This document shows positions 39,775-55,789 of a DNA stretch of 64,000 nt, piece after piece. A program made the position numbers and the translations under genes. This DNA is from Escherichia phage vB_EcoM-673R5, in the sequence record ON470615.2; one strand, 5' to 3'. The notes beneath the pieces were generated by a model, which worked only from the letters and a program-made list of their open reading frames with translations, searched no databases and was not told where the DNA came from. The stretch's first letter is position 1; every line of letters starts with the position of its first letter.

Positions 39775-40883
39775 ATGAAAGCAATGGGGAATGAAGTTTA
39801 TCAAAGTCAAAAATGCAAGTTGAAATATTCAAAATCTCAAATTGATAGGGCTGCTCAATTGATAAGGCACGGGTGTAGTGACGAAGAAAGGCAGCAATCT
39901 ATTGAAATGATACAAAATTTCCGTGAGCTGCATCTTTATCCATTAATGCTCATGAAAAATCATTTAGCAAGAGCAGCTGCTAAGGTTGACAAGGACAAAA
40001 AGATTCTCGTTGCAAGAAGACTTAAGCGACTTTCTACCATAATAGATAAACTAGAGCGTCCTAGTCTTGATGGAGGCAGAACTAGCAATGCAATTAAATT
40101 AACACGGATGCAGGACGTTGGCGGATGTAGGGCCATTGTCAGAAACTTAGACCAGTTGATACAGCTAAAGGAACGTCTTTTAAAAAGCAAATCTGTTCAT
40201 AGGATTGTTAAAGAGTATGATTATCTTACTCCCAAAGACAGCGGCTATAGTGGAATCCACCTTGCATACAGTTGCTTCGATCAGAAGAGGATCAATATCC
40301 GTGGCGAAAAACAAAGATTGAGATACAGTTAAGAACTCAATTGCAGCATGCTTGGGCTACCAGCCTTGAAATAATTGATACCCTTGAAGGTATCAAGCTG
40401 AAAACTTCAAGTGAAGGGCATCCAGAATGGAGACGATTTTTCTATCTAGCCGGATGTCTTGTAGCGCACGACGAAAAAGCCTGCACTCTTGATGAGCTAG
40501 TTGTATCTCAGTATGAAGGCGAGCTTAAAGAGCTGGAACGGACTTTATCTGTACGGAGGAAACTAAGCACATACACCATCGCCTTAAATTTAACTTCTGA
40601 CGCGAATTTGATTAAGAAGTTGCCAAAAAATCATAAGGGGCATTACTTAGTAACAATGAGAAATGCAGAAAACAAGCCCAATACAAAAAACAAAAAAATG
40701 TTCCTAGTGTCTGTTCGCGCATTTAAAACAAAAGAAGCAGATGAAGCCCTTGAGGCCTTAAATAAAGACGATTCTAATCCTAATGTATTGATATCTGTTC
40801 TCGTTGCTACAGATAACATTAAGTCACTAAAAAAGCCTACCCCAACTATTTTGGCTCAACAAACCAGTTTACAAAATTCTTAG
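39775..40883 (+). CDS. fused RelA/SpoT-synthetase toxin (toxSAS) with C-terminal extension, CapRel-like; one frameshift in the A-run at 40305-40315
   Basis: Synthetase motifs RRLKRLSTIIDKL, DVGGCRAIV, GYSGIHLAY, EIQLRTQLQHAWA; about 140 aa C-terminal extension; no separate antitoxin ORF. AT-rich. Confidence 0.7.
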
Positions 40884-40917
40884 ATAAGCATCTTCGTAAC
40901 GAAGGATAGTTGCTTAA

Positions 40918-40943
40918 TTTTGCCCGGTAATTCCGGGCAAAAT
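40918..40943. terminator. bidirectional terminator hairpin
   Basis: ttttgcccgg-taat-tccgggcaaaa. Confidence 0.55.
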
Positions 40944-41664: not shown

Positions 41665-44600
41665 TTATGCGTATTGTTGGATGACGGCCAGAACGTCCGC
41701 CACGTTGTGTTTTGTCTCGATAATCCACCAGTTACCCGGGAAATCGCTGTTCTTCGCCTTCGCTGGCAGCCAGCGAGCGCCGAATTTCGCCTTGATTGCG
41801 TCTTTCGCACGGAAAAGAACGCCTTTCATGCCTGAGGCTTCCTGAAGCCCAAATACCTCGCCAGCGGCGAATTTTGGTGCGTACATCATCTTCAGGTCGG
41901 CGGTGGATACGCGATAATTCAGACCAAGAGACTGAGCTATGCTGGTGGCATCACCCTGTATTGATGATAACTCTTCTTGTTTCTCGTTTCTGGCGGCAAT
42001 TTCTTCCTCCGTGATGTTGCCAAGGGCCAGGTTTATCCGATCAGCGTCGGCCTGTTTCTCTTCATCGGTGCGTCCGGCAAGAACCGTGTTAACTCTCTGC
42101 AATATCTCCACATGATTCTTGCGCATGCTGAGCAATTCCGGCGTAACCTCGTTAAGATCCACCAGCCCAAGGATGGCAAGGTCGGAAAACATTGATACCA
42201 GGTTGTAGGTCATGCGATAGCTGAGTTGACCATAGGCTGATGGCAACTTCACCGCATCCATTTGATAGGCATCCATAAATTTAGAGCCGTCGTTTACGAC
42301 ATCCGCAATTGCCGGTGTGATTTTTCCTGTGGTGGCGGCCTCCCTGATTGCTGTTACCCACGATTGAGTCAGCGCGGCGACTGCATGATTCAGATTGGCT
42401 TTCCGTTCTGCTGCAATGTGCGCACTTGCTGCGTCCATTGCCTGCTTGATCTCGTCTTTATTGCTGTAAATGCCAATGGTGCCAAACTGTGCTGTGGTGA
42501 TCTCATAATCTGACGCCCGGACTCATGGGTACCGAAAATGGCATTGGTGACCTCAAGTTCAGAATCCCCGTTACGAGTAGCCCCTGGCTTGTTTTCTCCG
42601 GCATTTTTGCGATCGCATCCGCTATTTTCTCCTGAATTGCTTCAGGGGATAGCGTATCTCCGTATGACGCGATTACATCGCCATAATTGGAGCCAAACAA
42701 TTCAACCAGGAATGTTTCTGCCGAACGGATCTGGCGGTTATTCCCTTCCGACATCATACCAAGCACCCATTTTGCAATTGACGACTTCAGCGCGCCGTCA
42801 CGGCGATCCGGGTAAACCGCATGCTTCAGTGGGTCCGTATAGGTGCCAACAAAATCAATGCTATAGCCTGACTCTGTAGTCTGAACGCCGTATGAGTCAG
42901 TGATTTTGATCATGCCGCGCTGCTGGAAACGGTAGAAATCGTCACAGGAAATGATGTCGTTAATCCCGGCGATGGAGACGCCACCACTGATTTTCTGCAT
43001 AACAGCATCTTCATCGGGAGTTACATCCACCTGTTTATCCAGCGTCTTCACATCCCAGTTACCCGATTTGGTGCCTTTGAAGGTAAAGATGATCTCCACG
43101 TCTGCGCGCTGGCTGTCGAAGTCCAGCGACTTAATGCGAACGATATCACCGGCACAATCATAGTATTGGCCTACACGCCATGAGCGATCGCCGATAACAA
43201 GGAACTCATTCGCATGGTTAACCAGATCAGGATCAACATCCAGAATGCCTTTATTTATTGCATCCTCCACCAGCGGGCGCAGGCGTTTGATATCCGTCGC
43301 GGCCTTCTGAGTACGGTTCAATAATTTCTCATAGCGGGAGATGGCCTGAGAGATATTAGCCTTGCGCTGAATGGCGCTTTTCAACGACGCGCGATACTGT
43401 GCTAACAACATACGGTCTGTGTGATGGACGCTACCCCAGCGGGCTTTCCAGTCTGCGTTATCAGCTGCTTTGGCCATTACCGCCTGTTTGAATTTGGCGA
43501 CGTCGGCGGTGGTCTTTTCAAGTTCCGCTTTGCTTCGCTCCAATTCAGCGGTAAGTACCTCCACATCCTCACCAGCTGCGTGCTGCGCCTTGATGTAGTT
43601 CTGAAGGTCGATAGTAGCCTGTTCTTTCTGGCGAGCGCGTTTCGCAGCTTTCGCCTTATCCATTTGAACCTGCATCATTACCAGACGTTCGCCATCATCC
43701 TTAGCGGTATACATCTGCATTTCGATCATATCGTTGGCGTCGGCGTTCTCCATTTCTGACTTATCTGAACGGAGGATATCGGAGATCCAGCCTGCTTTAC
43801 GCTTCAGCGTCTTCAGTCGGTATTCATCGAAAGAACCCTTGCCGCAGTAGTAATGAACGCGAACGCTTGCACGGTTGGAGCCAACTCGAGCACCGCGACC
43901 GTTACGCTGTGCGATACTGGCTGGTGTCCATGGCAACGTCAGATGATGGATGTCAGTCGTTCCTCGATGCAGGTTGATACCCACCTCTGCCTTTTTGTTG
44001 CAGATGATGATCGGAGTCCGGCCCTCCTGGAAGTCGGCTGCAATCTTTTCCAGACCGCCCAACGACATTTCATTTTGCTGCGCGATATAGGCGTCATACA
44101 GAGCCATTTGCTCGTTGTATTTCGCTATCTGTGCATCTGTTGGTTCATCCGGTAACTCTTTCGGCGGTTTAACCGCTTTCAGTTTCTTACCGGTTTTACC
44201 TGCCTCGGCAACCGTCTGAGCATTCAGGATCCCCACCTTTGAAGGTTCAAGGTTAAGAGCATTGCAGATAATGCGCTTGAGCTTCTGGTGCTGCGTTTTT
44301 CGTCCGTGAAGATGATTTGCTTACCTTCCGGGAAAAACGCCTTCAGCGTGGCGATCAGCTTCGCGTATTTGGGTGTAACGGGGTGAGTTACGGTCTGTTC
44401 GTCAATGCCAAACTTGGCCAGGCGATTATTCACTTCCTGCTCAAATGCTTCCGGTACCTGCAACTGAATAAACTCGCCCTTATCTATCAGGGAGTATTGC
44501 GATTGCTGCGTGATCGAATCATCACTGTCGTCGTCTTCGCTGGTGGCTTGTTTAGGCAAACTGTCCGCCAGCTGCTGCACCGCATCGGCGTACTCCGGCA

Positions 44601-47600
44601 GGAAACGATAGGTGATCCTGCGATAGTACAGGTCCATGTCAGTACATACGCGGTCCATATCCCTGATTATTGAGAAGATCGGACGGGCTTTCTCGTGCTC
44701 AATCACGCCGTCTTCATTGACCGAGGTCGTTACGCCATTGTTGGCTTTGGCTGCCGCTTCCGCCTGCTGACGCAATTCTTCATACGCCGCCAGTTGTTCT
44801 TCCGTAAGTGGTGCATCCTGCTGGTGTTCGTCCAGTTCCGGGATCTCCACGGTATCCTTAACGTCTTCCGCCGTTTTAAGCGTTGTCCAGCGATGGAATA
44901 TGCCGCGCAGCGCATCAAGGTTTTCAAAGCCCACCAGCGCCATTTTTTCTTCAACTTCACCGCTGATTTTCTGTACCGTTTCCAGCCTGGTCTTGCCGAA
45001 GAATTTAACGAAGTCATCAGGACCGTAGATCCCCATCTTCTGCCAGTATTCCTTCGGCAGCACATGAGAAAGCATGTTGTATGCATCGATCGGGGTGTTA
45101 ACGACTGGCGTTGCAGTCAGGAGAACCGGTCCGCGCCCACCATTCTTTTTCATCAGGTACGCGTTTTTAATTGCCATATCCCGCGCCGATTGCGCCACCG
45201 CGCTGGTGGGCAGATAGGCCAGTTGTGACGCTTCGCGACCATTTTTATAGCTATTGCGGTAGTTGTGACCTTCGTCAGCGATCACACTATCGAAGCCCAT
45301 ATCCTCAAAGTACGGATACTTCTCTGCTTTTTCGGTGCCGGTATCTGAATACTCCGACAATACCCGGCGACGCGCGGCCTCTTTGCGGTGGGAGTCGGAG
45401 TCCATTGCGCTGGCTACGCGCCCGGCGGCAACGAAGTCATAAAGCATATCCTGTGCATGCTCATCTACGGTGTCATCACGTAGCGGAATGCGGGCGTATT
45501 GTTCTTTGGTAAACACGACTGCACGGTAATTTGAGTGCGGGATCGCGTTCATCCGCGCCGTGATAGTGGCTTCATCTGCCAGTTTTAGGGCATCGCGCAT
45601 AACTGGAGTGCCATCAGTACCAAGAACAGGTTTACCGTTCTCATCGAGCACCGGCACCTGGCGAATCTGATCGCCATCCATCAGCACATCAAGACCGACG
45701 AACAGGTAGTTACTGAATGCCTCTTCACTCAGGAATTCTTTTGCTTCGTAATACCAGTTTTCCAGCACTGATTTAGGCACTACATACGCAGTACGGGTGG
45801 AGCGACCGTTCTCATAGTTGAACGCCTCAAGCGCCAGCGCGGTCGTAGTTTTACCCAGCCCGGTGCCGAAGCCCAGGATGCCGCGCCCATCTTCGGACAG
45901 TCGGCGCACTTCGCTATTCTGGTAATCAAATGGCTGGCGCTTACCGCTTAATCCCTTCAACCCAAGCGGATCGCCAGAGTGTTCATACGGGATATTGCTA
46001 TTGAACACATCGTTGTATTTGGCAACCAGTTCATCGTAGCGATCGTGCGTCTTGATCCACTTATTGAACTGGTCCTCAAGCAGTGCCATCTGCTCGCGGT
46101 AGCCGTTCGCCGTCGCGCTATCTTTGCCACCGATACGCGCACCATTGAGATACTTTTCCAGCTGTGCCGGGAACCCGGTCGCGTTTTCACCTGATTTACG
46201 GTCCCACTCGTAGCGGATCTCGCCTGTTTCTTTATCCTTGCGCTGGACGACACCGTATCGGTGCCCGACGAACAGGCCATCACCACCGTGATAGGTGTCA
46301 GAAACCATTTCGTCGCCTTCCAGCTGCACTGACTGCACATAGCGCAGATCCGGATAGCCGTTTTCCTGCAAAAACTCCAGAATGACGGAGCGGTCGAACC
46401 AACGGCTATTGAGCTTAAAGCGGATATTCTCTGCTGGCGTCTTGATGCGCTTCTCTTCGATCGCTGCCAGCTGATTAAGGACGTTGTTCTTTACTGGACC
46501 GTCGGGGAGTGTGGCAAGGAATTCCTGTTTTGGAGCCACTATCTCGTTAATGTCGCCGCTGGTGGCGCGGGCGAACGGAACAATCCCGCCATACGGAGAA
46601 ACCGCAATACCAGGAGTGCTGGCCAATAAATTAAGCAACTCTTCATCACTGGCTGGCAGTTCGCCGGTAAACGCAAGGCGGAAATCATCGAGCTGGATTG
46701 GATCGCGGGTAAGATCGCTATAGAGATAACGCAGGGTGTCCTGATAGCTGGTGGAGTCATAACTGGCGCTGGAATCATGCGTAACCAGCTTTCCTGTTAG
46801 CTCGTCAGAAATAGTGCCATCCAGCTTAATTGCACCACGGAAAGCAAACCAGGCGCGCGCACCGCTTCCCGATAATTTAGCTATCGGACCGCGACCGGGG
46901 TTACCAAAACGGTCAATCTCTGCCTGCAAACGGGACACCAGAGAAAGGCGCTGCTGTTCGATTTGTTCAGCACTATGCCCGGCGGCCTTCATATCCTGAT
47001 ATTCAATTAACATCCGGCCAATCATCGCCCCACGATACAAGCGTTCACGGTATTTTTCAGGCTGGCTGTTAATCCAGTCCACCAGCTGCACCATATCGTC
47101 GCTGATTGATGTGGTGTACTTATCGCGGACATTTGCCATCTGGGTAAATGTCATACCGAGACGGCCTTCTGTTGTAGTCAGGTTACGCTGAAGAGCCTCC
47201 CAGCTATCCGCGCCATAACTGGCAGCATCAATCTTAAGCTCCTTACCAGCATCAGCTTCAATCCAGCGACCACCAGCATATTTTTGCCATACGCCATTAA
47301 TCAGGCGCATTTCCCCTTCATCAACAACATCTGCGGTCGGTGACGGTTCAGCCATATCGAGCAAAGACCAGTCGATACGACTTTCGAAACGATGAATCAG
47401 CTTCGCTTTAAGAGCCTGGTTATCAATCTGACCGTCGGCACGAACCTCAATACGCCCCTGGAAGCCCTTTTCCTGGGTGCCATGAACAAACCGGCGGCCA
47501 TCCTTTTCAAACCACTTGCCAGAAATAAACGTTGGCCAAAGCACATTTGCCGATTCAAGAGTGCTTTCATCCACCAGGGGATTTTCTCAGCCATCTCTGC

Positions 47601-48428
47601 CGGATGTTTGCGCATCAGCACCACATCAACGACTGTACTGGTCCCGTTTGCGTCAAAAGTACCGGTAGGCAAGCGGTGAGCGCCAAGAAATTCAGCTTTA
47701 CGGGATAAGCGCAGGCGTAACCGCTTCATGTTTGAACCTGAAACAATGGACGGCGGCACAATCACGCACATGAATCCGCCTGGCTTTATCTTGTCCAGCA
47801 TGCGGAGCATGAAGTAAGAACCCATGTCCGTTTCTTCTGCGTAAGGCTTATCGATGTTGCGTGTGTTATCACGACCGCCGAACGGAACGTTACCCACAAC
47901 ATGGTCGAATGAATCGTTAGGCGTGCTTATAGCCAGCTGTTCGAACGGGGAAATCTGTACGCTGTCTTCCGGGTGTAACAACTGGTTTATACGACCGGAA
48001 ACACTGCTGATCTCAGTCGCGGTCATCACCGTACCAACCGGTTTTGTCTCATTAAAAACGCCGGTTCCCGCCGATGGTTCCAGAGTGTTACCTACGTCCG
48101 CGCCGTAGAGCTTCATGATCTCCCAGACACCTTCAGCGATCGGCTTTGGTGTGTAATATTCGGAGACGGACCCGCCAATGCCGCCTTCACCGGTGTACCC
48201 AGCCAGGATCTGGCGCTGTTCATCTGTCAGTGTCGCGCCGTCCACCAGCGAATTAAGCAAATCTATCGCCTTCTGATTCGCCTCCCGGCGCAGTCGGTCA
48301 TAGCTTTTGCCTTCCACCTTTTCCACGCCGTATTTAATCGGCGCTCGGTGAGATGTTATTGCCCTAATGTATTTCAATATTTCGCTGACACTTGAACAGC
48401 GAAACACCCCCATAAATAGCTTGTTCAT
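41665..48428 (-). CDS. darB: giant anti-restriction protein with N6-adenine methyltransferase and SF2 helicase domains; several frameshifts
   Basis: Four co-linear fragments (343 + 1116 + 577 + 257 aa) total about 2250 codons. MTase-like DHVVGNVPFGG; helicase LGFGTGLGKTTTALA, VIADEGHNYRNS. Confidence 0.8.
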
Positions 48429-48494: not shown

Positions 48495-50225
<1,731 letters not shown>

Positions 50226-51480
50226 ACGGCAAACATTCCCAATTCACAGAGTCCGACCTAAACCACATGAAGCGGCTTAGGAATTACAGACTCTCCAAGG
50301 GCTAACACTGCCAGCCCGGCAGCTTTTATATTACGGGCCGCGTTAATATCACGATCATGCTCTGCGCCACATTCCGGGCAGTGCCATTTACGAATATTAA
50401 GAGGCATTTTTTGCATGGTGAAGCCGCAACTGCTGCAACGTTTGGAAGAAGGGAAATACTGGTCGATAGCGACAATGCTACGTCCACCCCATTCTCCTTT
50501 GTACTGGAGTTGGCGTACAAGTTCGCTCCAGCCTGCGTCAGCTATTGCTTTAGACAGCTTCGGGTTACGGATCATGTTTTTCACTTTAAGGGATTCGACG
50601 CAAACAACTTGGTTTTCGTTAATCAGTTTGCGGGACAACTTATGCAGGTTATCCATCCGACAATCGACTATTCTCGCGTGGAGGCGGGCAACCTTTAAAC
50701 GTGCTTTGGCGCGGTTCTTTGAGCCTTTTTGTTTCTTGCTCAATCTGCGCTGTAACACTGCTAATCGCTTCGCGTATTTAGCGTTGTGTCGAGGATTGCC
50801 AGTTTTAAAACCGGTATCGGTGACGAACAAATCTTTTAAACCAATATCAATGCCGACCGTGGAAACGGTGATCGGCAGTGATACAGGCTCAAACTCGCAG
50901 AGACAGGATACAAAATATCGTCCGGCAGCATCCCCTGGTGATAGTGACAGTGGATGGAGCAGACGGCAACGGACGGCTCCAGCGAACATCTAACGGCTCT
51001 TTGCTCTTTGCCATGTACAGCTTGCCGTCACGGTATTTAAATGCGCTGGCAGTTAGTTCTGCGGCCTGTTTATGCCGCTTGCTCTTAAAAACTGGGTATG
51101 CAGCACGCCCGGCGAAAAAGTTAGCAAAAGCCGTTTGTTGGTGGCGCAGAGACTGCTGGAGGGGGACGCAGGAAACGTCATTCAGCCAAGCGAATTCTGG
51201 TTCTTTTTCAGTGCCGTTAATTTGGCGCTGGCTTGTGCATAGCCGACCCTCTCATGGCGTGCGTAGTACGCATCGGTGCGCCAGCGAAGGAGGCTGTTAT
51301 AGACAAAACGCACACACCCAAAAGTCCGGGCTAATAGCTCGGTTTGTTCGGGAGTTGGATAGAATCGATATTTATAGGCACGCTTCATGTTCTATATAAT
51401 ACATTGAAACTAATGAGTATATAAATGAATACACGGACGAAAATGTTATCAAAGCCAATATACCAACAGACATTAGGTAA
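50226..51480 (-). mobile_element. IS200/IS605-family TnpB-only element in the prt-pro intergenic region
   Basis: tnpB fills nearly the whole prt-pro gap with no tnpA. Element ends not resolved. Confidence 0.6.
50258..51388 (-). CDS. tnpB: TnpB (OrfB) RNA-guided nuclease-type transposase accessory protein; frameshifts
   Basis: N-terminus MKRAYKYRFYPTPEQTELLARTFGCVRFVYNS; RuvC-like VGIDIGLKD and CVESLKVKNM; zinc finger CSSCG...CPECGAEHDRDINAARNI. Confidence 0.85.
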
Positions 51481-51500
51481 GGTAGCTGGAGGGCAATATA

Positions 51501-52520
51501 ATGACTGATGTTTTGAAAACGGTCACTGACCGCTTTTGTCTCTATAGCAATGCTCGAAAAGGTCGCCAGAACGGGCGACAGTATGTATTAAGCGCGGTTA
51601 AGACCATGCTTGAAAGCAAGGAAACTCAGGAAGGTTTACGCCTTGGAGAGCTTTTCGGCTATTACGGTCACGGTCGCCGACAGCTGACCGGCAAACTGGA
51701 AGTACCAGAAACCAGCGTAATCATGGTGGAAGGTCGCCCGGTCGTAATCGACAATGTTCCAGCGTGCCGCACAGTGGCTATATCCGTTGACGACAACGGC
51801 ATCGTTACCCATACACAGGAAATTCTTAACACAGAGCCGGGTAAAATTGTCGCCGCGATGATCGAAAGCCGAGCTGGTGGCTGGAGCTGGGCCACTGGCG
51901 GGCGTGAGTCCGGGAAAATCGCTGTAACCACCAGCTTCCATGGTGTGGATTATGTGACAACGCCGAACTATATCAGTCTGGATCATCCTGCCAGCGCCGG
52001 AATGTTTGAAAGCGCGGATTCTAAATCTTTACTGGCAGAGTCCCTGGCGGCGCATGGGTACTCCGACGAGTCAGTGCAGGCCGTTATATCCCATTACGGC
52101 AAAATGGCTGAACTGGAAATGATGGTGGAGGCGACAGAGCGTACGGCAGAACTGGAAACTGCACTACTCGAAAGCCAGGGCCGCCACCTCGAAGCAATGG
52201 CCAAGATCGCAGATGCTGAAGCGCGAATCGCTTTGCTGGAGGAAACAGCGGGTATCCGCGACGATGTGCTGGCAGCAATGCAAGACGAACTGGATAACCT
52301 CCCGATCTTCGTCTCCGCCGCCCAAAAAGACGCATTCCGCCTCAAAGAACCTGGTGATGCAAAAATCGTTGCCACACTTTTCGAATCTCTGATCAAAGTT
52401 GGCGCACGCAACTTGCCTGTCACCAAGAAAATTAAGGAGGTTCCGCAAGCGGCTAACGTCCAGGCACCGCGTGAGACAAGCATCATCACGTTTAATAATT
52501 CAATCAATCCGTTTAAATAA
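51501..52520 (+). CDS. pro: head processing protease
   Basis: 339 aa intact; GGAGGG RBS; position after prt. Family assignment by position and recall. Confidence 0.6.
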   Translation: MTDVLKTVTDRFCLYSNARKGRQNGRQYVLSAVKTMLESKETQEGLRLGELFGYYGHGRRQLTGKLEVPETSVIMVEGRPVVIDNVPACRTVAISVDDNGIVTHTQEILNTEPGKIVAAMIESRAGGWSWATGGRESGKIAVTTSFHGVDYVTTPNYISLDHPASAGMFESADSKSLLAESLAAHGYSDESVQAVISHYGKMAELEMMVEATERTAELETALLESQGRHLEAMAKIADAEARIALLEETAGIRDDVLAAMQDELDNLPIFVSAAQKDAFRLKEPGDAKIVATLFESLIKVGARNLPVTKKIKEVPQAANVQAPRETSIITFNNSINPFK

Positions 52521-52532
52521 CCACCAAAAATA

Positions 52533-52554
52533 ACCCCGGCAGCTGCCGGGGTTC
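52533..52554. terminator. bidirectional terminator
   Basis: aaccccggcagctgccggggtt. Confidence 0.55.
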
Positions 52555-52564
52555 TCGTTAACTA

Positions 52565-54267: not shown

Positions 54268-55621
54268 ATGACACACTGCAAAGAAAATACTTGGTATGAG
54301 CGTCAAGGGTACAATACCACCCGCCCGAATGAGATAAGGTCGGAGTATGAACGTGATCTTTCCCGGTTAATCCACTCTTCCGCTTTTAGGAGATTACAAT
54401 CGAAGACGCAGGTGTTGGGATTGGGCGAAAGCGATTTCTACCGTACGCGGCTAACTCACTCTATGGAAGTAGCGCAAATTGGCGGCGGTATCTTGTCTCA
54501 GTTGTCTAAGCGCGATACAGATGAGGGGGTAAATTCTTACCTGACCCAAGCCTGATGCAGGCTATCTGCCTTGCTCATGATATAGGACATCCCCCTTCGG
54601 TCATGGTGGTGAGGTCGCACTAAACTACTGCATGAGATCCTATGGCGGCTTTGAAGGTAACGGGCAGACACTGCGTATACTCTCCAAACTGGATAAGTAC
54701 ACCGAAACCAATGGGCTGGATCCCACCCGTAGACTTATTTTAGGCGTACTGAAATATCCAGCAAGCTATTCAGAGGTCGTCAATGAGAGGGCTTACAGCC
54801 AGTTACAGCCAAGAAGCAATGAGTGGTTGTTTAAATCATCCGAATTTAAGCCCCCGAAATGTTACCTGGACTCTGAGGAGAACACTGTTAGATTCGCACT
54901 CCAACCTTTTGATAGTGATGATGTTAAGTTATTCAAAACGGTAAAAACTACCGCGTTGAATAAGCACAAGGAAACAATATATAAAGCACTGGATACAACG
55001 ATTATGGACTTGGCTGATGAGATATCCTACTCACTCCATGATCTTGAAGACGCAATTTCTCTGAAGATGATCGACAAAAAAATGTGGGAGGAGCACTTCG
55101 AGGACAAATCCCATTTATTTGCAGCTTGCCAATGCGACTCGTTTAATCTAAAAGCCGATGATGTAGCTGAAAAACTGTTCGGCGAAAGTTATCTACGCAA
55201 GGAGTGCATAGGGACACTTGTTCATCTGATGATCACTAGCGTTAAGCTTGAAGTGCAGAACTCTGATTTCAAAAGTAAAATTTTACGCTATAAAGTGGCA
55301 CTTCCTGCCGCGGTAGAAGAGTTACGTAAAGCCATTTTTGAGCTGGTTAGGAACAAAGTTATTCAGCACGAAAACGTCCAACTATTAGAGTTCAAAGGTC
55401 AGAAACTGATTGTGGAACTATTCAATGTACTGGCAAATGACCCAATACGTTTTCTCCCGACAGAAACTCGAAAGAAATATAATCAAGAGGAAGCAAAAGG
55501 TGATGATAAAAAAATGCGTGTCATTTGCGACTATGTTTCAGGCATGACAGATGATTACGCTACTCGACTGTATGAGAAAATATTTGTACCGAGAAAAGGC
55601 TCTATTTTTGATAGACTCTGA
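54268..55621 (+). CDS. HD-domain dGTP triphosphohydrolase-like protein; two frameshifts near 54550-54600
   Basis: [12 protein letters not shown] and LAHDIGHPP[F]GHGGE; the second is restored by one T in cccccttcgg. C-terminal [17 protein letters not shown]-rich. Confidence 0.7.
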
Positions 55622-55789
55622 TTTTTTTCTATTATATAGTACGTAGCCGGGTTCCAGAACCGCATAAAATTAGATCTGGATATAATTCATTTAATTATCT
55701 GTTATATGCCAAACATAACGATATATAATAGTGGATTAGATGTTACAACTTGACGCAGAATAAATAGCTTTTATTGGCGCATGATGCAA

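Follow-up and report, generated by a model that had tools for sequence, protein, structure and literature searches.

IS608 of Helicobacter pylori is the mechanistic model of 'peel-and-paste' transposition by insertion sequences (IS) of the IS200/IS605 type. It encodes its own transposase gene, tnpA, inserts 3' of the 4-nt target motif TTAC without target duplication and ends with TCAA on the right. For IS608 and for ISDra2 of Deinococcus radiodurans it is established that the Y1 transposase requires a hairpin in the left end. ISDra2, which also possesses tnpA, represents the TnpB/omegaRNA system (8bf8, 8exa and 8h1j) in which the guide RNA overlaps the 3' end of tnpB and the right end, and the transposon-adjacent motif (TAM), in this case TTGAT, abuts the left end. 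For TnpB and IscB of the ISGst elements a homing and retention model was proposed, according to which the joint of TAM and target at an empty site is cut and the element is then restored or copied by recombination (Meers et al. 2023, doi 10.1101/2023.03.14.532601). Here, we describe an element with tnpB and without tnpA in a stretch of 64,000 nt from Escherichia phage vB_EcoM-673R5 (ON470615.2; in the following, the window), located between the portal gene prt and the head processing gene pro of a P1-like phage-plasmid.

Like IS608, this element was inserted 3' of a 4-nt motif without duplication and has the right end TCAA, and its relatives possess subterminal hairpins; its motif, however, is TCAT, and an own tnpA is missing. 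With ISDra2 it shares the full-length homology of TnpB, the RuvC triad, the zinc ribbon, the overlap of the putative guide RNA with the 3' end of tnpB and the right end, and the position of the TAM at the left end. It differs from ISDra2 in the TAM sequence and in the absence of tnpA and of a left-end hairpin, and no Rfam model matches its omegaRNA above threshold. The ISGst model relies on excision by TnpA from a sister chromosome, whereas excision of the P1 copy is unlikely and the empty sites would be those of other P1-like genomes in the cell.

A further described relative is gipA of the prophage Gifsy-1 (STM2600.1n; NC_010392.1, 19746-20876), which shows 79.6% nucleotide and approximately 85% amino acid identity. 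It is likewise TnpB-only and lies in antisense orientation between Z and U, two phage morphogenesis (tail) genes; TCAT coincides with the downstream start codon, and GTCAA forms the right terminus. Gifsy-1 exhibits a perfect 21-bp left-end hairpin including GGAGGC and a GC-rich right-end hairpin, whereas the P1 copy has neither in that form. In Salmonella, gipA is annotated as 'Peyer's patch-specific virulence factor GipA' or as 'transposase' and is a member of this TnpB family. Elements of this kind are already known and generically annotated by RefSeq ("RNA-guided endonuclease TnpB family protein" in sister plasmids of the window), and the element described here is one more TnpB-only insertion sequence.

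Boundaries of the element and its target motif

In the window, prt ends at position 50225 and pro occupies positions 51501-52520, followed by the genes for lysozyme and ssb. In a megablast comparison with phage genomes, both flanks of the element matched P1, P7, RCS47, SJ46 and others at 98-99%, and 1295 bp were absent between them. The size difference to 18 P1-like phages was also 1295 bp, in agreement with the boundaries at base level. In P1 (NC_005856), prt and pro overlap by 8 nt (sequence ATGACTGA), and the ATG of pro is located inside the final codons of prt (...GAT AAT GAC TGA). The base-level comparison with P1 yielded ...GGGAAACGATA / ATGACTGATG... for the empty site and ...GGGAAACGATA / TTGACAATTG...(1295 bp)...GGAGGGCAATATA / ATGACTGATG... 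for the filled site, with the insertion point between ...ACGATA and ATGA. This comparison, which is exact to the base, therefore showed that the element comprises positions 50206-51500 and was inserted without target duplication. Terminal inverted repeats were not found at its ends, and the TAM abuts the left end, as is typical of IS200/IS605 elements.

The original prediction had proposed an insertion of the IS200/IS605 type at 50226-51500, with tnpB filling an intergenic space between prt and pro. The type of insertion was confirmed: the region is not equally long in all relatives, since the P1-like empty sites found by the proposed genome comparison are 1295 bp shorter, and IS-type ends could be identified from approximately 35 insertions. 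The right coordinate was correct as well. The left coordinate has to be revised to 50206, because the last 20 nt of the element lie inside prt, and a native intergenic space does not exist, as both genes overlap in P1.

These last 20 nt form the new 3' end of prt, which obtains six and two-thirds new codons and a stop codon from the right end, so that the C-terminus NDND* of P1 is changed to NDIDNCPP*. The gene pro keeps its own ATG and would receive a Shine-Dalgarno sequence, GGAGGG, from the left end. Judged from the reading frames, both neighbouring genes thus stay whole. Taken jointly, it is very probable that a single insertion event 3' of TCAT, at the junction of the overlapping prt stop and pro start, gave rise to this element of non-autonomous IS1341-type architecture.

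The ends and the TAM were defined by aligning the flanks of approximately 35 independent insertions of homologous elements. TCAT next to the left end was invariant in all 35 distinct sites of the left-end type of the P1 copy, and T was preferred at position -5 (20/35); by this alignment, TCAT was shown to be the TAM. All right ends terminate with G(T/C)CAA. Homologues with 70-87% amino acid identity are common, include gipA of Gifsy-1 and fall into two left-end types, which are flanked either by TTAT/TTAC or, like the P1 copy, by TCAT. TnpB proteins diverged by only approximately 15-18% from P1 TnpB (82-85% amino acid identity) belong to elements with TTAT/TTAC at the left flank and with different left-end sequences. 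The specificity for the TAM seems to have switched between very close relatives.

TnpB, its predicted guide RNA and the mobility of the P1 copy

The TnpB protein matched the Pfam families PF12323 (HTH_OrfB_IS605), PF01385 (OrfB_IS605) and PF07282 (Cas12f1-like zinc-ribbon), all above the cut-offs, and the NCBIfam model guided_TnpB (NF040570) with 357.9 bits (cut-off 100); the stricter model NF038281 yielded 393.7, which is under its cut-off of 425. It could be aligned over the full length with ISDra2 TnpB (8bf8/8exa; residues 3-365, E=6.6e-77). The RuvC triad D181/E265/D347 corresponds to D191/E278/D361 of ISDra2, and the zinc-ribbon CxxC...CxxC is conserved. According to these alignments, TnpB was shown to be intact in clean assemblies, with 376 amino acids and the RuvC triad. 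No tnpA or Y1 transposase gene was detected by tblastn in the 64-kb window, and the distance from the left-end tip to the ATG of tnpB is only 112 nt. As expected, a TnpB gene with RuvC-like motifs and a C-terminal zinc finger, not accompanied by tnpA, is located between prt and pro; it forms a single reading frame in clean assemblies, but not in the window.

In the window, the TnpB frame consists of three pieces due to two 1-nt homopolymer indels, an extra C at approximately 50932 and a missing T at approximately 51203, and darB (44224-48428) and prt (48504-50225) likewise appear split. In comparison to pMB9880_2, only 5 substitutions but 44 gap openings were counted over 33.9 kb (window positions 30127-64000), nearly all of them in homopolymers or short repeats. 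The window therefore represents an unpolished long-read assembly in which many genes look split, and the two frameshifts in tnpB are almost certainly assembly errors. Interpretation of the split frame as a pseudogene was ruled out by this census of indels. Sister plasmids hold the identical insertion, and their tnpB differs from that of the window solely by the additional C in a C-run and the missing T in a T-run. A full-length tnpB of 1131 nt is annotated in all five carrier records that were checked, and two copies from IMG/VR match all 376 residues. Another IMG/VR copy (L141) carries a 2-nt insertion in tnpB.

Among five distinct P1 copies (E. coli, E. albertii and IMG/VR), 23 positions of tnpB are variable, with 11 non-synonymous and 12 synonymous differences. 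The ratio of non-synonymous to synonymous substitution rates (dN/dS) of 0.27 (p=0.002 vs neutrality) indicates that the P1 tnpB is under purifying selection and that the gene is maintained.

For the analysis of the guide RNA, an alignment was made of the final approximately 237 nt of 57 homologues, which originated from enterobacteria, Halomonas, Zobellella and phage contigs. RNAalifold predicted six helices, in which 95% of the cells were paired in the structure count, compared to 38-49% with slid partners. Compensatory double changes occurred in 24 of the 32 pairs, and none of 500 shuffles reached the observed values. The scaffold starts within tnpB, of which it covers 66 nt at the 3' end, continues through the non-coding right end (52 nt) and stops at the last base of the element. 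Several helices are located within the coding region, one of them including the stop codon, so that the RNA and not the protein is under this constraint. By covariation, a conserved RNA structure was thus shown across the 3' end of tnpB and the right end. The P1 copy keeps all six helices, some of them via compensatory changes relative to other lineages. The flank which directly follows GTCAA would be transcribed as the guide; together with TCAT, it rebuilds the empty P1 site.

The predicted position of a guide RNA on the minus strand at approximately 50230-50400, reading into the 3' end of prt, is in good agreement with the scaffold supported by covariation (50323-50206). In the suggested covariance-model search, the Rfam models were compared with the window region and with five loci of homologues; only sub-threshold matches to RAGATH-18 (RF03064) were obtained, beside spurious matches of miRNA models to the left-end hairpin of Gifsy-1. 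In the window, RAGATH-18 matched at 50236-50301, in the core helices only, with 21.8 bits against a gathering score of 44.9; the value for Gifsy-1 (28.9 bits) was also under this score. The weak match fits an omegaRNA, given that IS607 TnpBs use RAGATH-18 as their guide scaffold (PMC11061315). The coordinates of all features are summarized in Table 1.

Table 1. Features of the TnpB-only element and its flanks, listed from the TAM towards the guide flank, followed by features of the neighbouring genes.
Feature	Position	Strand	Remarks and basis
Whole TnpB-only element, 1295 bp	50206..51500	-	No target-site duplication; interrupts P1 flank GGGAAACGATA / ATGACTGATG
TAM, TCAT	51501..51504	-	Reads as start ATG of pro plus A on the plus strand; 35/35 distinct insertions of the same left-end type
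Left end, 112 nt	51389..51500	-	AT-rich, no subterminal hairpin, specific to P1 copies; DNA fold, 260 loci compared
tnpB, 376 amino acids in clean assemblies (WP_001312284)	50258..51388	-	Broken in the window by homopolymer indels at ~50932 and ~51203
Right end, 52 nt	50206..50257	-	
Guide RNA (omegaRNA) scaffold, 118 nt	50206..50323	-	Six predicted helices, ends with GTCAA; RNAalifold, 57 homologues
Flank, putative guide: TATCGTTTCCCTCTTTAAAG	50186..50205	-	Directly follows GTCAA; antisense to the last prt codons
3' end of prt newly supplied by the right end	50206..50225	+	Sequence comparison with P1
Putative Shine-Dalgarno sequence of pro, GGAGGG	51488..51493	+	From the first 13 nt of the left end, 7 nt before ATG; read from the sequence

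The left end and the target motif had been expected within 51389-51480. The left end indeed begins at 51389, but the TAM is located outside of this range at 51501-51504, and the left end itself is atypical. It has only the first approximately 13 nt (TATATTGCCCTCC) in common with its relatives, and the remaining approximately 100 nt are AT-rich and unmatched elsewhere among the 260 loci. Folded as single-stranded DNA, it reached -2.6 kcal/mol (z +1.2), which is no better than random, compared to -32.9 kcal/mol (z -7.6) for the left end of Gifsy-1. The right-end hairpin is weakened as well (-6.6 kcal/mol), whereas the relatives have subterminal hairpins at both ends. As the left-end hairpin required by Y1 transposases is lost, the P1 copy is probably immobile and no longer transposable. 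By its sequence, it belongs to the IS200/IS605 group by descent, without the hairpin needed for mobility.

Every copy with at least 98.7% identity occupies this one site in P1-like DNA, and no near-identical copy outside the P1 context was found in PLSDB, in searches of E. coli genomes or in a check of E. coli ST2747. An independent transposition in strain ST2747 was considered and rejected, because the "chromosomal" copies are still flanked by P1 DNA on both sides. On this chromosome (NZ_CP007394.1, 2144672-2150949), a fragment of ref, the last 50 bp of prt, the TnpB element, pro, lyz and ssb lie beside chromosomal genes. The P1 segment shows a deletion of approximately 11 kb between ref and prt in comparison to the plasmid and represents either an integrated remnant or a mis-assembly.

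Insertion of related elements at start codons

TCAT is the complement of ATGA, and in annotated records the start of the next plus-strand gene coincides with the left-end tip or is only a few bases away. The genes trbC and ybhB start 109 nt beyond the ATG of tnpB where the left end measures 108 nt, and pro is likewise located at the tip in P1. In Gifsy-1, the ATG at the tip opens an open reading frame (ORF) of 133 codons, which is the length of the tail gene U, annotated 1 nt further on. An ORF of at least 60 codons starts from this ATG in 30 of the 35 TCAT-type insertions, several of them with a signal-peptide-like start. In 22/35, the flank of the right end contains the reverse complement of a Shine-Dalgarno sequence at the right distance, corresponding to the original ribosome-binding site of the gene. 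Both features were present in 20/35 (binomial p=5e-19). For comparison, 1050 further TCAT sites of these loci were counted, of which 31% had ORFs, 9.9% Shine-Dalgarno sequences and 4.2% both. These counts indicate that the elements sit exactly between the native Shine-Dalgarno sequence and the ATG, antisense to the gene.

The majority of enterobacterial left ends begin with CAGAATGCCTCC, which provides GGAGG 7 nt from the ATG on the strand of the gene. Left ends of the Halomonas type do not provide it there, so that a replacement of the ribosome-binding site is not universal. Furthermore, GGAGG forms the foot of the left-end hairpin in many copies, and its role in translation is therefore only inferred. 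The pattern is compatible both with a choice of these targets and with the survival of harmless insertions. The habit of this TnpB family to land at start sites has apparently not been described previously. In the literature on gipA, on TCAT or TTCAT as TAM, on TnpB of phage-plasmids and on insertion at start sites, no description of the TAM or of the start-site habit was found, but coverage of the literature was incomplete and novelty is unproven; the sole TTCAT TAM in the searched literature was that of ISGst5 IscB (Meers et al. 2023).

With regard to transcription of the neighbouring genes, terminator-like sites consisting of a hairpin and a T-run are located inside the element on the sense strand of prt and pro (50308-50322, 50700-50725, 51061-51078 and 51326-51342, plus strand). 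Such sites were enriched in the scanned region (8 observed, 1.9 expected). A sigma-70-like sequence with 10/12 matches on the plus strand (51371-51400) faces pro, with promoter counts at chance level. These sites are a hint of a possible block to read-through from prt and of a possible start of pro transcription in the left end. Such an outward-facing promoter is speculation, as matches in the promoter scan did not exceed the shuffled expectation.

Empty sites, proposed activity and alternative explanations

The element was found in 23 PLSDB plasmids, compared to 530 records matching the adjacent pro-lyz-ssb region, and in IMG/VR 3 carriers stand against 89 empty sites (3/92). Identical junctions were present in 38 E. 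coli genomes, in 37 of which the match was shown to span the whole element, and in plasmids of E. albertii and E. fergusonii. Among the empty sites of P1-like IMG/VR contigs, 63/89 match the TAM and 21 nt perfectly. A further 22 sites have C instead of A at position 2 of the guide, adjacent to the TAM, and the remaining 4 differ elsewhere. In the A-to-C variant, GAGAATGA replaces GATAATGA at a position equivalent to 50204 of the window, which changes D to E in Prt. It accompanies a change at +55 and, in all but one haplotype, also at +48 (haplotypes of +-290 bp), and it could be an escape allele or an ordinary polymorphism. A near-match to TAM plus guide occurs only once in the window, at the right-end junction of the element itself, where TCAA stands in place of TCAT.

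According to the mechanism of ISDra2 and of Meers et al. (2023), the tnpB transcript would be processed into an omegaRNA whose 3' guide corresponds to the flank TATCGTTTCCCTCTTT... The complex of TnpB and omegaRNA would then cut TCAT+TATCGTTTCCCTCTTT..., i.e. the intact prt/pro junction of P1-like genomes without the element. The carrier would be protected, since the element separates the TAM from the target and the right-end junction TCAA would distinguish self from non-self. Any remaining activity would be directed at empty sites, which would be cut, with homing of the element by recombinational copying or damage of co-resident P1-like rivals as the outcome. As most empty sites are perfect targets, a carrier could cleave most element-free relatives entering the same cell.

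Haplotypes of the +-290-bp flanks were compared for 7 carriers and 81 empty sites. The carriers occur in five haplotypes, interleaved with empty sites, and are mutually identical only within approximately +-100 bp of the element. This mixture shows recombination between carriers and non-carriers; it does not imply TnpB as the driver, nor does it separate homing from vertical descent. With respect to homing or to damage of rivals by the element, the evidence is neutral.

Several observations can be weighed against the proposed nuclease activity and homing. Formally, the window as given contains a broken ORF, and the promoter-like sequence TTTATA-18-TATTAT just upstream of the tnpB ATG (51425..51396) is no better than expected by chance from shuffled sequences. 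Helix 2 of the scaffold contains two U-U mismatches, which are common to the whole sub-lineage, and the terminal hairpin of the right end has diverged and is remodelled to GTTTGCC/GGCGGAC. The boundaries of the omegaRNA, the length of the guide and the stringency of the TAM were inferred. Furthermore, carriers are rare although most empty sites are perfect targets, which argues against efficient homing. The rarity of carriers, the interrupted ORF, the lost left-end hairpin and the 2-nt insertion in one IMG/VR copy would also fit a decaying relic, i.e. a single neutral landing whose tnpB and guide RNA are non-functional and look intact only through recency. We consider this rather improbable, because the frameshifts of the window fit a pervasive pattern of homopolymer errors, tnpB is of full length in the checked carriers and complete in two IMG/VR copies despite approximately 2% divergence of the gene, the dN/dS value indicates constraint, and all six RNA helices are kept, some by compensatory changes.

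A still mobile insertion sequence, moved in trans by a Y1 transposase such as an IS200-type TnpA, with TnpB merely restoring the element after excision, would have support in the relatives, which are clearly mobile: near-identical elements of this family occur at several loci within single Serratia and Klebsiella genomes. In some carrier plasmids, moreover, the tnpA-only IS200C adjoins pro on its downstream side (CP027133, NZ_CP027133.1 7900-8620; CP033882), at a site which corresponds to approximately 52521-52560 of the window and is unoccupied there. However, IS200C was rejected as source of the transposase, since neither its ends nor its hairpins are related to those of the TnpB element. 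Together with the missing hairpin and the lack of tnpA in the window, the restriction of this left end and of all copies with at least 98.7% identity to one site in the P1 context makes continued mobility quite unlikely. Domestication to a nuclease-dead repressor of the TldR type, acting on a host or phage gene, could be considered because enterobacterial prophage TnpB relatives were exapted as RNA-guided transcription factors (PMC10705468), and because the family member of Gifsy-1 was described as virulence factor GipA. The intact active site, with the catalytic residues and the zinc ribbon retained, shows that the element is not of this type, and the guide corresponds, in the manner of an ordinary transposon copy, to the flank of the element rather than to a distant promoter; this explanation is extremely improbable. 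The view that the TnpB family is specialised for translation starts and that the P1 copy, after loss of its hairpin, is now a homing element or a weapon against rivals and no longer a transposon is held tentatively, as possible rather than probable.

Beside this element, other insertions were observed in the same part of the backbone. A different TnpB (insQ, 402 amino acids) is located between the convergent genes pro and lydE in pJIE250_3 (NZ_MN510445.1, locus 1360-2568), CP057476 and MK256965, and this stretch of the P1 backbone has therefore acquired TnpB elements repeatedly. CP057937 contains a group II intron in the corresponding region. Outside the scope of the present finding, the P1-like backbone of the window also possesses accessory genes of the defence type, an anti-phage dGTPase gene (approximately 54297-55652) and a gene for a RelA/SpoT-domain protein (approximately 39805-40932).

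The family provides a clean natural case in which the 4-nt target of an IS200/IS605 element is a start codon and the left end replaces the ribosome-binding site. This would explain the survival of such elements in tight phage and conjugation operons (prt/pro, Z/U, trbC and bioA/ybhB), and it could mislead the annotation of gene starts. The locus is also a warning that such genes look like pseudogenes in error-prone long-read assemblies. Finally, an immobilised copy with an intact nuclease and a guide at the conserved prt/pro junction may serve as an easily tested system for TnpB homing or exclusion between phage-plasmids.

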